64,000 bases of DNA from Escherichia phage vB_EcoM-G157lw. Shown piece by piece: positions 2,097 through 50,898 of the stretch (positions are counted from its first letter, which is position 1; each line of letters opens with the position of its first letter). Under the pieces are notes generated by a model that had not been told where the DNA came from, searched no databases, and saw only the letters and a program-made list of their open reading frames with translations. A program made the translations under genes and the position numbers. Location: the sequence record OK331996.1. One strand, given 5' to 3'.

Positions 2097-5000
2097 CTAT
2101 TTTAACCTGTGTTGGATTTTCAGGGTCTCTTGGATTTCCTATATTATCTTTTAGACGTTTATTAACTAAATCTCTAAATTGCGCAAATGTTGTTCCAGAT
2201 GCATCAAATAAAGGACTCATTAATTTACGTCGTTCAGACGGCAATTGACCTTGAAATATTGAATTATTATTTTCAGCATTATAGTCATCAGGAAGAGGAT
2301 ATTCTACACCAGCCATTGGGCCAGGCTCATAAATTGCTTCGCCTGTTACTGAATCATGCTCAATTTCACCGGTTGGAGTTAATTTAGCTACTCTATCAGC
2401 ATATTCAGTAGGCAATCCAGAATCCCATTTATAGTTTTTGTATTTATTAATTATAGTCTCTGTGTGTTTAAGAGTTAAACCAACATTAATAAACATCGTT
2501 AAAAGGGTAATTGCTATAAATCCAAATCCTACTGGATGAACAAAACGAATAACGTCAGATTTCCAACGGGAAGAAGGTAAATTGGATTTAATTTTCATTA
2601 CATAGTATGATCTACTTCTATTAATATAGTCTATATTGTTTTGAAGCAAATCCTTTCCTTTAACCCCACGAATAATTTCGCCTTCAAAACCAGGGAGTCT
2701 TTCTGCTTTAACTTCTTGACCAGCAATTAATCGTCCTAAAAGATTATGAATAGTTACGGTCCATTGCAATTTACCATTAGAATAGCTTCTTTCTATATAA
2801 GTAACATTACATCTTCCTGTTGCCGTATAAATCGTTTGTCCTACTAAATCTTCAGTCAAAGAATCAGATTGAACGATTATGTCATATTCAGTACCGGCCC
2901 CAGATTCAATTTCAATTTCAACTTCTTCATTATAAAGAACTTTAAAAAGAAACTTGTATGATGCTTCAATTCCTTTAGTAGAATAAAAATCATAGCTACG
3001 TGATTCAAAGAATCTCGCAACAGCATCACGTTTATCAGCATTTAAATAAATGTTTCTTTTATATATCTCTGACCACAAATATTCCCACGCATGCTCTTCT
3101 CGTGGATATTGGTTACGAATTAAATTTCGTAAATTGTTATACTGAGTTCCATATCCGTCAGAAAGATATTGAATATATGCTTCACAAAATGCCTCAAAAT
3201 TAGAATCTTGTAACAAGTAAGAATCAGGCATCATTGTGCCAATCAATGGTCTTAAATCAGGGTCAGCTAATCCACGTTCTTCTTCTGGTGACCAAGGAGT
3301 TTCGCGCTCTTGGTTTTGTAAAAATGCTTTTAAAAATACTTCAGTTGGCTTCCAAATAATTTCTACTGTATCTCTCACACGATAGTTAAAATCATAATAA
3401 GAAATTATTTCGCCAGAAGATTTGTAGAAAAGCATTCCTGATGCGTATTTTTTAAATCCGGTGAATTTAACATTTGGCATTACTATCGTGCAATCACCAT
3501 CATCCCAGTATTCATGAACTAATCTATCTGGTGATGTTTCTGGAATATTTTCTATAACTTTAGTGTATTTTAAATCAGCATAAACTACTACAGCTCTATC
3601 AGAGTTGTTTATCCAACATCGTGTGTTAGATTTTTTAGACCAGTTAAAGAACGGTTCTGCGTAGTATTTCATTGGTTGAGGAGTAAAAGTCTCCCAATCA
3701 GATTTTTCATCCGCTATAAATGCCATCATATGATAATGCTTATCAGCTAACCATTCACGAGGAAATTCATATTTAACAGCACCGATTAACTGATATTTCA
3801 CCACAGTTTCAGGGTCATTAACAATGTTATCACTTAAAAATTTAAAATTACTCGAAGATAGAGAAACTAATTTACCGTCAGTTGACATATTCGCATATCC
3901 GGGTTGAATACGTCTTCTTTCTTCTTCGGTATTACCGAAAACTCTTTTCCACGTTTTCGTATCATGGTTTAAAACATATATTCCTTTATCAGCAGAATCA
4001 ATTATTTTTGATGTTCTAGGATTGGCATTTAATGTTTCAACTTCACCAATAATAAGAGCAAAAACTTTATCACCAACAGAATCCATTTTATAGCATACTG
4101 CTTTAGGATTTCCGGTTATAGTCATGGTATCAGGTTCAAAAAGTCTTTCCGAATATGTTGGAGATAATGGATCAGAATCTATAGGTGCATTACTCGTTTT
4201 TATGTATCTAACTTTGTCTCTGGCGACAACGTAAATGTAATCATCGGTGCAAGTAATAGCTTCTGCAATGCGGTATACATTCGCTGGTAAAGTCGCATAA
4301 GTGGCAAAAATTTCTACATCAAATCCTAAATGTAATTGGTCGCCAAGTTTAGCGAATGTTATATCCTGTGAACTGAATCTGACATCATCAGCTGACCATC
4401 TAACATCAGTAGATTTGCGGCCATAGAAAATCTTGTCGTATCCTAGAACGTATGTAGTGTTCGCAGATTGGTAATATACTGTCTTAGATAAAGGATATCC
4501 TACACGGTCATTGAAGAGCTTTACAGCTTTCCAGGTTTGTCCTTTATCATTAGATACTTTAACCACGGGTTGATAACGCTCAAAAAGATATAGAATCCCT
4601 TCTGATTCCATCAAATAAACTCGGTTAATATCCTTACATACTTGCTGAATGGAACCTTGTATTTCATGATACTCATTTTCACCAATAATAAAATTACTGA
4701 TTGATGAAACATCAACATATGATGGGCTGAATTGGAACGATTCATTCATCAATGCAGCCATTATAGTGTCATTATTAAAATTGACATAATTAGAATTGTT
4801 AAGAGTAAACTTTTCCTGAATGAATTTATTGGCTAATTGCATTTCAATCATGTTTTGAAATGTGTAAGCATTCGTAGCAAAAGTTTCAAACTCTTCAGTA
4901 TAAATCCAATCAGACTGCTCAAAATCCTGCGCAGCTGTAGCTACTCTAATAATGTACGATGTTAATGGATTAGCATTATCAAAAAAGAAGCTGTTATTTG

Positions 5001-17540: not shown

Positions 17541-17570
17541 GTTTACATCCTTGTCCTTCCATGGTACTAT
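17541..17570 (+). promoter_or_regulatory. early promoter with conserved leader (PeSL-like cassette)
   Basis: GTTTAC, TACTAT, then conserved ACAACTATCAACTACTGATACAG leader. Confidence 0.55.
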
Positions 17571-23485: not shown

Positions 23486-23848
23486 ATGAAAGCATATCAA
23501 ATTCTTGAAGGCACACATAAAGGTACTATTTATTTTGAAGATGGTATTCAAGCACGAATTATTGTCTCCAAAACCTTTAAAGAGGACTCTTTTGTAGACC
23601 CAGAAATTTTCTACGGTTTGCATGCCCGTGAAATTGAAATTGAGCAACAGCCTACAGTTAAAATTGAAGGTGGTCAACACCTGAACGTTAACGTTCTGCG
23701 TCGCGAAACTCTGGAAGATGCAGTTAAGCATCCGGAAAAATATCCGCAGCTGACCATCCGTGTATCCGGTTATGCAGTTCGCTTTAACTCTCTGACTCCG
23801 GAACAGCAGCGCGACGTTATCGCTCGTACCTTTACCGAGAGTTTGTAA
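23486..23848 (+). CDS. autonomous glycyl radical cofactor (GrcA/YfiD-like)
   Basis: 120 aa; C-terminal [57 protein letters not shown] glycyl radical motif. Confidence 0.85.
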
Positions 23849-24069
23849 TGGCAAAGATAATTATTGAAGGTTCTAAAGATGTGCTAAATGCTTTCGCAGA
23901 ATGGTTTAGTAATTCAGGCGAACAGCAATTTAATGAAGCGTGGAACATGGGTGATATTAATGGAATTTATCCTACGACAGAAATTTCTGTTCAAGGATAT
24001 GGCATTCATGAACCTATTCGTTTAGTTGAATATGATTTATGTACTGGTGAGGAAGTCAAATATGATTGA
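23848..24069 (+). CDS. hypothetical protein
   Basis: 73 aa, ATGA junction. Confidence 0.5.
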   Translation: MAKIIIEGSKDVLNAFAEWFSNSGEQQFNEAWNMGDINGIYPTTEISVQGYGIHEPIRLVEYDLCTGEEVKYD

Positions 24070-32340: not shown

Positions 32341-32342
32341 TA

Positions 32343-32366
32343 GGGAGCCTTCGGGCTCCCTTTTTT
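32343..32366 (+). terminator. intrinsic terminator, UUCG loop
   Basis: GGGAGCC ttcg GGCTCCC then TTTTTT. Confidence 0.75.
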
Positions 32367-32390: not shown

Positions 32391-32420
32391 GTTTACAAGC
32401 ATAAAGCTTTATGGTACTAT
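32391..32420 (+). promoter_or_regulatory. early promoter with conserved leader (PeSL-like cassette)
   Basis: GTTTAC, TACTAT, conserved ACAACTATCAACTGATAC leader. Confidence 0.55.
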
Positions 32421-32454
32421 ACAACTATCAACTGATACGGATTTGGAGAATAAA

Positions 32455-33423
32455 ATGAAAACTGTAACTATCAATAAGGGTATCTACTTCGGTAAAGAAA
32501 TCTCTGGAACTTTTGAGCTCTTAGGCGAATGGTTCCCGGATAATGCTCCGGTAGATGCACAAGGAGATGGTAAAGTTTTTGTTGAAATTGACGGTAAACG
32601 TCGCGGTGTTTGGGTTTACAAATCAGACATTTCATATGATGGTGTAAAAGTTGAAGAAGTTAAAGAATCGTATGAAGATATGAAAACCCGCATTAATAAA
32701 AGATTTAATGTTATGGGAATGATGACGAATGGTATTATTAACGGAAACATTCGTTCATTAATTATTTCTGGTGCGGCGGGTATTGGTAAAACGTATTCTT
32801 TAGATAAAGCTTTAAATAAAGCAAATGATATTGGATACATTGAATATAAAAGCATTAATGGTAAAATCTCTGGTATTGGTCTTTATGAACAGCTTTGGAA
32901 TAATCGTGAAGAGAATTCTGTCCTTTTGATTGATGATGTGGATGTTTTCTCTGATATGGACATTCTTAATCTTCTGAAAGCTGCTCTGGACACTGGAGAG
33001 ACCCGTAAAGTCTGCTGGAGCACTGCATCTTCTTACTTAGAAGAAAAAGGAATTGAGCGTGAGTTTGAATTTAAAGGAACGATTGTTTTTATCACAAACG
33101 TTGACATTGACCGCGAATTAGACCGTGGTACTAAACTTGCTCCACATTTACAAGCATTAGTGTCCCGCTCAGTTTATTTGGATTTGGGTGTTCACACTAA
33201 TGAAGAAATTATGGTCAGGGTTGAAGATGTTATTCTTTCAACTGACATGATGCAAAAGCGCGGTCTTTCTGATGAAGAAACTTATAAAGCATTATCATGG
33301 ATGAAAGTCAATGTTAATCGTTTACGCAATGTTTCACTGCGTACTGCTCTTTATCTTGCTGACTTTATTATGACCGACAAAAACGGTTGGGAAGAAATCG
33401 CTGAAACGGTATTATTAAAATGA
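32455..33423 (+). CDS. AAA+ family ATPase
   Basis: ATG 32455 (track start is TTG); Walker A GAAGIGKT, Walker B LLIDDVD, sensor-1-like FITN. Confidence 0.65.
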   Translation: MKTVTINKGIYFGKEISGTFELLGEWFPDNAPVDAQGDGKVFVEIDGKRRGVWVYKSDISYDGVKVEEVKESYEDMKTRINKRFNVMGMMTNGIINGNIRSLIISGAAGIGKTYSLDKALNKANDIGYIEYKSINGKISGIGLYEQLWNNREENSVLLIDDVDVFSDMDILNLLKAALDTGETRKVCWSTASSYLEEKGIEREFEFKGTIVFITNVDIDRELDRGTKLAPHLQALVSRSVYLDLGVHTNEEIMVRVEDVILSTDMMQKRGLSDEETYKALSWMKVNVNRLRNVSLRTALYLADFIMTDKNGWEEIAETVLLK

Positions 33424-34138
33424 AAAAATATTTTACTATCTATAAAACTGAAATATTAAATTTAAAGACAGGTATTAAGAAATACTATTATGGTCGACAT
33501 ATAACTAATAACATCAATGATTCGTATGTTGGTAGTGGAAATTATATAGAACGTGTAAAAGTGTCAAATGACCACATATTATCAAAAACGGTTTTAGAAG
33601 TTTTTGATAATTATGATAAAATGGTACAAGCTGAAATATTATATATCATGGCAGGTAAATTGAAATATGGAAAAACTGTGTTAACCTGTCATACGGGGGT
33701 GAAGGAGGAAAGGTTGCAGATGAAACTAGGATAAAATGCAAAAAGCATTCTATAAATTTATGGAAAAATCCTAATCATATACAGCATATGAAGAAAAAGA
33801 TGAAAGAGGTCACATCCACGCCGGAAGCTAAATTAAACACTTCAATAAAAACTTCGCAACGATATAAGGACCCAGTTTTTGTTAGAAAAGTTAGTAATAT
33901 TATTAAAAAGAAACTAAACAATCCTGCAGTAAAAGAAAAGCATATTAATGGAATTAAAGCTGCAAAGCGTTCTCATTTAACTATATGGCAGTATGAAGAT
34001 GAATTATTCGAGCTTTGGAAAGAAACTAAATATGGATGGAGAAAATTTACAAAGGAAGCTATAAAACACGGATATCCAAATGAACCGTATCGTAGTATGG
34101 TATCAACTTTTCAGAAAAGACATTTAGAAGAATCCTAA
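33420..34138 (+). pseudogene. GIY-YIG (seg-like) homing endonuclease interrupted by a frameshift
   Basis: ORF 33420-33734 has GIY-YIG-like N-terminus; downstream frame stays open back to about 33683 and overlaps it; shift near G-run 33694-33698. Confidence 0.45.
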
Positions 34139-34220
34139 GACAAAAAGGCAGTTCAGAAATAGATTATATGGACTGCCATCAAAAAGATGACTAGAATTAA
34201 ACTGGTAAATGGAGGTAATG

Positions 34221-34523
34221 ATGTTATACTCAAAGGCTCGTGAAATTTACGAAACTAAAATTAAAGAAGCAGTATTTCAGTTCGCAACAACAATGCGATG
34301 GACAAATGATTGGGAGTATTCAAAAAATCATAAGAAGCCTTTGGTGACAAGAAAGGCTCATATGTTAGTGTTAATAGACCGTGAGCAGATTAAAGCCCGA
34401 GAAGCCCTCCAGAATCATAAAAAGGCTGCCTTTGAATGGTTTATGGATAACACTGCTCCTGAGACTAAGAAAGCAGTGAGCGCTTGGTTCAGTGGAAAAA
34501 ATTGTGAAAGAAGTTTCTTTTAG
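34221..34523 (+). CDS. hypothetical protein
   Basis: ATGs at 34209/34218/34221; GGAGG RBS favours 34221. Confidence 0.5.
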   Translation: MLYSKAREIYETKIKEAVFQFATTMRWTNDWEYSKNHKKPLVTRKAHMLVLIDREQIKAREALQNHKKAAFEWFMDNTAPETKKAVSAWFSGKNCERSFF

Positions 34524-34525
34524 TT

Positions 34526-34555
34526 GTTTACAAGACCGTTCCTCTGTGGTACTAT
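34526..34555 (+). promoter_or_regulatory. early promoter with conserved leader
   Basis: GTTTAC, TACTAT, ACAACTATCAACTAC. Confidence 0.5.
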
Positions 34556-50137: not shown

Positions 50138-50278
50138 ATGATATTTCTTGGATATGTGATACTTTTTCTTGCATTTTATCTATTCACTAGAGCATGTTGT
50201 GTTGGGTTCTTTAGCACACCAGATGGGTTTATTTCAATAATTTTATTTTGCATTTCAATGACGGTTCTTGATATATGA
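50138..50278 (+). CDS. small hydrophobic membrane peptide
   Basis: 46 aa after GGAG; ATGA-coupled to downstream gene. Confidence 0.4.
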   Translation: MIFLGYVILFLAFYLFTRACCVGFFSTPDGFISIILFCISMTVLDI

Positions 50279-50898
50279 AAAAATATATAACTTATTTAAC
50301 AATATATAGTGGAGATAAACTTCCTCCTTTTTATATTGGATCTACGTCTTTAGATAGGCATTTAGCTGGATATCATGGTTCAGTTTTATCTAAAAAGTAT
50401 AAGAAAATTTATAATAAAGAGCTTTCAGATAATCCTCACTTATTTGATTCATGCATTTTAGCTGAATTTGATACGCGTGAAGAAGCTATTAAATGCGAGT
50501 TATATTATCAACGATTGCATGATGCAGTTAAAAATCCATTATTCTTTAATATGTCATATGCTGCTCCAAAAGGTTCATTTGGAAGAGATAATAAAGGACA
50601 AAATCATCCATTATATGGTTCTCATAATTGTAAAGGAAATATACATTCACATGATCCATTAACAGGAAAATCTGCCTTTTTGCCTTATATTCCAGAAGGT
50701 TATGTAAAAGGAAGGTCAAATAAATTTAAAGCTTCATCACATAATAAAGGTAAAAAATGGTATAATAACGGAGTTAAGCAAATGTTATGTCATGAACCTC
50801 CTGGTCCTGAATGGACAAAAGGAAAAATTAAAGAACTGGTTTCAAAAGCAGCTAAATTAGGATGGAAAAGACACCATGAAAATACTAAACTTGGGTGA
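50275..50898 (+). CDS. GIY-YIG-like putative homing endonuclease
   Basis: 207 aa; TIYSGDKLPPFYIGST motif; His/Lys-rich C-terminus; overlaps gene 47 start by 23 nt. Confidence 0.5.
   Translation: MKKYITYLTIYSGDKLPPFYIGSTSLDRHLAGYHGSVLSKKYKKIYNKELSDNPHLFDSCILAEFDTREEAIKCELYYQRLHDAVKNPLFFNMSYAAPKGSFGRDNKGQNHPLYGSHNCKGNIHSHDPLTGKSAFLPYIPEGYVKGRSNKFKASSHNKGKKWYNNGVKQMLCHEPPGPEWTKGKIKELVSKAAKLGWKRHHENTKLG

Follow-up and report, generated by a model that had tools for sequence, protein, structure and literature searches.

A Seg-family homing endonuclease gene with a probable one-base deletion beside the conserved ATPase gene nrdC.10 of a T4-like Escherichia phage

In Escherichia phage vB_EcoM-G157lw (record OK331996.1), the early gene nrdC.10, which encodes a predicted AAA+ ATPase and appears to have been inherited vertically, is followed at its stop codon by what we read as a Seg-family GIY-YIG homing endonuclease gene, frameshifted by the real loss of one nucleotide. 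We assign this reading as a whole a probability of about 0.75. Public records already contain annotations of both genes, and what is seen here is a textbook homing-endonuclease life cycle. The analysis covered a stretch of 64,000 nucleotides of the genome (hereafter the window), to which all positions refer. The features of the locus are listed in Table 1.

Table 1. Features at the nrdC.11 to nrdC.9 locus of the window.
Feature	Position	Strand	Remarks
Terminator-like hairpin AGGGAGCC-TTCG-GGCTCCCT with T-run, GC-rich	32342..32361	+	3' of nrdC.11
T4-type early promoter, GTTTACA-N15-GGTACTATACAACT	32391..32426	+	directly upstream of nrdC.10
nrdC.10, predicted AAA+ ATPase, 322 aa	32455..33423	+	Walker A, Walker B, sensor-1, lid
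Recoded 3' end of nrdC.10 in carriers of the endonuclease gene	33405..33423	+	by comparison with L010, T4, L012 and JS98
Endonuclease gene insert, ~730 nt	33405..34134	+	replaces ~34 nt of the empty nrdC.10/nrdC.9 junction
5' fragment of putative Seg-family GIY-YIG gene, 104 aa (G157_00208)	33420..33734	+	
3' part of the gene, in the shifted frame	33659..34138	+	Asn/GG motif, linker, presumed DNA-binding C-terminal part
A5 run, site of the 1-nt deletion	33671..33675	+	A6 in intact alleles
ORF within the 3' part, 116 aa (G157_00209)	33788..34138	+	
Spacer	34139..34208	+	common to genomes without the endonuclease gene (T4, L010)
nrdC.9 (DUF7203)	34209..34523	+	

The locus and its endonuclease gene

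A 3.9-kb query around the locus matched 774 phage records, nearly all of them Tequatrovirus, with AR1 (99.1%) and RB32 (98.5%) as the best matches; over 25 kb, no record was found with an identity to the window above about 97%. Judged by these comparisons, the window is a Tequatrovirus (T4-like) genome. The annotated gene order in AR1 and RB32 is nrdC.11, nrdC.10, seg-like endonuclease, nrdC.9 and nrdC.8. T4 has the order nrdC.11 - nrdC.10 - nrdC.9 - nrdC.8 without the endonuclease gene, as do JS98 and a Tequatrovirus-like metagenomic contig (L010), and in Acj9 nrdC.11 likewise lies immediately upstream of nrdC.10. By its gene order, the region is the normal early-gene block nrdC.11 - nrdC.10 - nrdC.9 - nrdC.8 of a T4-like phage.

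The ORF starting at 33420 is, from its family profiles and motifs, a Seg-family GIY-YIG free-standing homing endonuclease gene and a homolog of RB32ORF093c. The Seg-family profile matched both halves of the window gene (E values of 3e-30 and 6e-32), and a profile of 30 homologs scored 162, 146 and 127 bits on T4 SegA, SegB and SegC, respectively. BLASTP against SegB gave 3e-11, and a PHROGs search matched phrog_314 ('homing endonuclease') with an E value of 1.7e-30. Membership of the Seg family follows from these profile scores and the SegB match, together with the family motifs. An exhaustive HMMER search returned 1438 relatives. In the 30-homolog alignment, residues Y8, G25, D34, Y36, G38, G40, E72, N89 and G93 were invariant and Y23 nearly so, a set that constitutes the GIY-YIG pattern. 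When the same 30 homologs were compared with Pfam, PF19835 (SegE_GIY-YIG) was matched by 11, NUMOD3 by 10 and PF01541 by 7. Neither the intact protein nor the window fragments gave a direct Pfam match, a PDB sequence search with the intact endonuclease and PDB and Pfam searches with the family profile returned nothing, and an AF2 model of the intact endonuclease, built on two aligned sequences, had a pLDDT of only 47; family profiles and motifs are thus the basis of the GIY-YIG assignment.

In GenBank, the RB32 gene is labelled 'putative site-specific intron-like DNA endonuclease, similar to seg'. In AR1 and RB68 the nrdC.10/nrdC.9 endonuclease is labelled 'segE', a misleading name: the locus of segE is inh/uvsW (PMC2988022), and this gene lies elsewhere.

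Elsewhere in the window (50275-50898, + strand), an apparently intact, free-standing GIY-YIG-like ORF of 207 aa lies between 47.1 and 47, at a site that is empty in T4; it matched phrog_10820 at 8.9e-95 and PF01541 at an E value of 3e-4, just below the cut-off. When the whole window was searched by tblastn with proteins from T4 18-86 kb, no match was obtained for segA, mobB, mobC, I-TevII, mobD, segB, segC and beta-gt, nor for denV, ipII, ipIII, 49.3, tk.1, e.7 and 5.3, absences that are compatible with diverged counterparts.

A one-base difference in the endonuclease gene

Alignment of 33400-34220 with RB32, in which the gene is intact (239 aa), and with AR1 located the lesion. The run of six A in those phages is reduced to five in the window, and this is the single difference from RB32 in the 720 nt of the gene. 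The earlier note had recognized a GIY-YIG-like ORF that continues in another frame, and the profile matches to both halves bear this out. The frameshift that it proposed is real, although it lies in the A-run and not in the G5 run at 33694-33698, which is unchanged, and the second frame is open further back than 33683, the limit given there. The two frames overlap at 33659-33734, and the shifted frame ends with a stop codon at 34136-34138.

The reading frame is lost after K85, so that the product (MKKY...KLKYGK followed by 19 out-of-frame residues, ending at 104 aa) lacks N89, G93/G94 and the C-terminal part, and retains Y8, Y23, G25 and E72. The full set of GIY-YIG, Glu and Asn motifs is present in the intact homologs and incomplete in the window product. 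With its catalytic domain cut before the invariant Asn, the 104-aa product is presumably inactive, in accord with the decayed homing endonuclease that the earlier note had suspected. The window copy would be a very recent pseudogene, unable to home. For annotation, the two 'hypothetical proteins' of this phage belong together as a single frameshifted seg-like pseudogene.

Of the 66 phage records that carry the gene, none matched the 65-nt stretch 33641-33705 with A5 exactly, and 53 matched the RB32 (A6) version exactly. Exact-pattern scans of IMG/VR, GTDB genomes and JGI metagenomes for the A5 allele returned nothing; because the A6 allele was absent from IMG/VR as well, the IMG/VR negative says nothing either way. 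Exact look-up of the 104-aa product in a contig index was also negative. A protein with the same shifted tail and an I19V difference was found on 5 contigs.

The base loss is probably a real mutation and not a read error, because the roughly 100 T4-homologous genes of the window are all unbroken and the shifted product is known from another sequence background as well. In a tblastn search of the window with 115 T4 proteins, about 100 were matched, and all of these matches lay in a single frame except that of vs.5. We considered vs.5 as a second frameshift in the window and rejected it, since the window ORF is intact (73 aa, uninterrupted, 23848-24069, + strand) and it is the T4 gene that is shifted. 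The T4 reference is one base short near window position 23899, and the annotated 58-aa Vs.5 looks like a frameshifted form.

The main alternative, which we regard as unlikely, is a sequencing or assembly artefact, in which case the phage would really have A6 and an intact, active 239-aa ORF. A one-base difference in a homopolymer is at a classic site of read or assembly error, intact copies match the remainder of the gene at 100% identity, and, as described above, A5 is absent from the phage records that carry the gene. However, the 64-kb window contains 66 homopolymer runs of 6 or more, and no other homopolymer frameshift was seen among the roughly 100 conserved genes, indicating that the assembly is not prone to such errors. 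The shifted product with I19V on five further contigs also argues against an artefact, as does the frequency of lesions in the endonuclease gene of other phages. The AR1 copy has a T5 run shortened to T4 at ORF nt 458, the RB3 copy has seven extra G in the G5 run (G5 to G12), and the FL12 copy has A6 reduced to A5 at nt 4 together with an extra A at nt 416; shorter endonuclease products are also on record. The lesions in RB3, FL12 and AR1 are independent, and all lie at or beside homopolymer runs. Across the sequences compared, decay is common for the nrdC.10/nrdC.9 endonuclease gene.

The ATPase gene nrdC.10 and its upstream element

The 322-aa ORF carries, as the earlier note had read from the sequence, a Walker A motif GAAGIGKT (aa 106-113, nt 32770-32793), a Walker B motif LLIDDVD (D160/D161) and a sensor-1 motif FITN (N215, nt 33088-33099). 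It further contains an SRS motif with R238, a candidate arginine, and, at 249-320, a helical lid. Across 30 aligned homologs there was no variation in Walker A, Walker B, N215, SRS with R238 and the lid motif LR..SLRT. A confident AlphaFold model (pLDDT 88.9) showed a five-strand beta domain (1-61), a poorly conserved linker and then the AAA+ module with its lid. With Walker A and B, sensor 1, the arginine candidate and the helical lid in place, NrdC.10 is predicted to be a protein of the AAA+ fold. The N-terminal domain had been estimated at about 100 aa in the earlier note; according to the model it measures about 61-65 aa and is followed by the linker and the first AAA+ helix. A profile of this domain (22 sequences) gave chance-level matches in PDB and Pfam, the best being ribosomal protein bL28 (E 0.05).

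Homologs of NrdC.10 numbered 991 at E <= 1e-3. The best 120 were all at least 53% identical and came from T4-like phages of Escherichia, Serratia, Yersinia, Erwinia, Klebsiella, Acinetobacter and Aeromonas. In BFVD, relatives were also found outside the T4 group, e.g. in Roseobacter phage RDJL Phi 1. On this distribution, nrdC.10 is an AAA+ ATPase gene vertically conserved across Straboviridae. Its conservation and its AAA match had been noted before (Nolan et al. 2006, PMC1524935), and a literature search found no functional study of nrdC.10, RB32ORF093c or G157lw. The gene is a widely conserved member of the T4 early genes without assigned function.

T4 NrdC.10 (NP_049708) is 99% identical to the window protein over aa 1-316, and its gene has the same locus and the same upstream element. 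The two proteins differ in their C-terminal residues, which are AETVLLK in the window, near the family consensus AEVTLLK, and TGYSSEINS in T4. Aligned to window 33400-33423, the T4 ending is a +1-shifted derivative of AEVTLLK, located exactly at the endonuclease junction. The possibility that this odd 3' end is the remnant of a deleted endonuclease gene was rejected; it aligns with the empty site of L010, apart from the 1-nt shift. In Shigella phage SHFML-11, a carrier of the endonuclease gene, nrdC.10 is represented in BFVD by two proteins of 165 and 152 aa (A0A193H091 and A0A193GZT6), suggesting that the gene may be split there.

The hairpin and the promoter upstream of nrdC.10 together form a composite of stem-loop and early promoter that resembles a PeSL, and nrdC.10 would be transcribed from this early promoter of its own. 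The promoter core occurs in the window in 4 exact copies and in 1 copy with 3 mismatches, against 0 expected by chance. The identical cores (GTTTACA-N15-GGTACTATACAACT) lie at 17541, 32391, 34526 and 60244 on the + strand, and those at 34526 and 60244 are alike in the spacer too. The promoter upstream of nrdC.10 fits the PST/T4 PeSL consensus TTTACW-N17-TAYWAT (PMC4122927). PeSL cassettes (Arbiol 2010, PMC2839356; Comeau 2014, PMC4122927) likewise consist of a hairpin and then an early promoter. Unlike those mobile cassettes, however, the element here marks no difference in gene content: the same genes lie on both sides in T4, AR1, RB32 and the window. No shuffling event is therefore visible at this site.

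These findings bear on the reading that the ATPase is cargo of recent arrival, delivered by a PeSL cassette, as the earlier note proposed, or by the endonuclease next to it, a reading that we consider very improbable. A PeSL-like hairpin and an early promoter do precede the gene, but the intergenic element between nrdC.11 and nrdC.10 differs from that of T4 at only 1 of 114 bases, so that the composite itself stands and the delivery of the ATPase by it does not. The neighbours of nrdC.10 in Aeromonas phage 31 and a relative include asiA, holin t and gp37 but not nrdC.11; this different neighbourhood indicates that the gene has moved at deep evolutionary distances, and the endonuclease probably homogenises its 3' part by co-conversion. 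Nevertheless, the 991 homologs and a position shared with T4, JS98 and L010, and similar in Acj9, are those of a conserved gene, the very finding that the earlier note had named as contradicting its proposal. Furthermore, nrdC.10 is at the same place in 435 genomes that lack the endonuclease gene. The recent mobility suggested in that note is indicated for the endonuclease gene and not for the ATPase.

Insertion, spread and decay in relation to known endonucleases

The cross-genome comparison of the locus that had been proposed as a check showed that the endonuclease gene is patchily distributed: 66 phage records carry it, including T6, RB14, RB32, RB33, RB51, RB5-9 and AR1, and 435 have an uninterrupted empty site. 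As with seg-type genes, the insertion is intergenic, lies between conserved genes and is polymorphic for presence and absence among close relatives. The junctions of the insert were mapped by comparison with L010, which lacks the gene, T4, L012 and JS98. The G+C content of the insert is 0.30, in comparison with 0.36-0.39 in the flanking genes. The endonuclease ATG overlaps the nrdC.10 stop codon (ATGA), and no separate promoter was seen for the endonuclease gene. In these respects the gene resembles the 'promoter-less cassette' seg and mob genes that have been described (PMC2988022).

The insert showed 0 substitutions in 735 nt relative to AR1 and RB32, whereas the flanks diverged more the farther they lay from it, reaching 2-6 per 100 nt from nrdC.11 outwards (4-6 at ~2 kb). 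An invariant insert with rising flank divergence is the pattern expected from homing with co-conversion of the flanks. Together with the patchy presence, the lack of substitutions gives the endonuclease gene the signs of recent spread. In a mixed infection, the intact enzyme would cut the allele without the gene in or near nrdC.10/nrdC.9, and repair of the break by recombination would transfer the gene, along with its flanks, to the genome that had been cut.

Carriers show recoding of the final six codons of nrdC.10. They specify AETVLLK* with GAA ACG GTA TTA TTA AAA TGA, as compared with GAG GTT ACT CTT CTG AAA TAA at the same codons of the empty site. A recognition site at this place would be expected to lead to such recoding. 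Cleavage by Seg enzymes can, however, occur hundreds of bases away from the gene (PMC2988022), and we therefore treat the recoding as a lead and not as a result. The nrdC.10 stop codon has also received another insertion. In a lineage represented by two contigs (L012, positions 3469-3630, and L013; Logan SRR21291448 and SRR21291447) that is 88% identical, a 53-aa hydrophobic ORF occupies the same junction and also starts in an ATGA overlap, which makes the junction a recurrent insertion point. A speculative reading, to which we give little credence, takes all these observations jointly as signs of an arms race at this junction: the Seg enzyme may recognise the 3' end of nrdC.10, the +1 shift of T4 in the recoded codons could be a mutation to cleavage resistance, and the A6/A5 tract could serve as a recurrent on/off switch for the enzyme; the 53-aa ORF at the junction is included in the same picture.

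The least credible idea is that the A-run is a functional slippage site restoring a low level of full-length enzyme, or that the two fragments cooperate: the lesion does lie inside the A-run and the A5 state is seen in two sequence backgrounds, but A6 is plainly in frame in 53 of the 66 carriers, the downstream ORF (33788-34138) has, as read from the sequence, no evident ribosome-binding site, and the lesions of other phages are at different runs, which fits random decay. Runs of five or six A are short for efficient slippage, and this also counts against the idea. In its favour, the expression of homing endonucleases is often kept low (PMC2988022).

Decay by a real base loss is the preferred reading. 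The closest known gene is RB32ORF093c, which corresponds to the T6 'DNA endonuclease'; in gene and position it coincides with the window copy, and the two have 719 of 720 nt in common. The difference is that RB32ORF093c is one ORF of 239 aa, whereas the window, with one A fewer, has ORFs of 104 and 116 aa. With T4 SegA, SegB and SegC, free-standing GIY-YIG enzymes associated with 'intronless homing', the profile homology extends over the full length, including the C-terminal part of SegA. The gene shares with the T4 seg genes its placement between conserved genes and in the same direction, the absence of a promoter, the overlap with the upstream stop codon and the patchy distribution in T-even phages. 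It differs from them in that the proteins are only 22-33% identical, that the nrdC.10/nrdC.9 locus is empty in T4 and that the window copy is frameshifted.

The defunct I-TevIII of T4 offers a parallel, being a selfish endonuclease gene that some genomes carry in an inactivated form and close relatives in an intact one (PMC2790892). Unlike I-TevIII, the gene described here is free-standing and not intron-encoded, and its decay would consist of a single, very recent base loss. Within the life cycle of homing endonucleases (invasion, fixation, decay and loss), the window copy would represent the stage of decay, and the locus as a whole provides a clean natural series of the homing cycle in T-even phages, from the empty site through the intact gene to at least four copies that were broken independently of one another.
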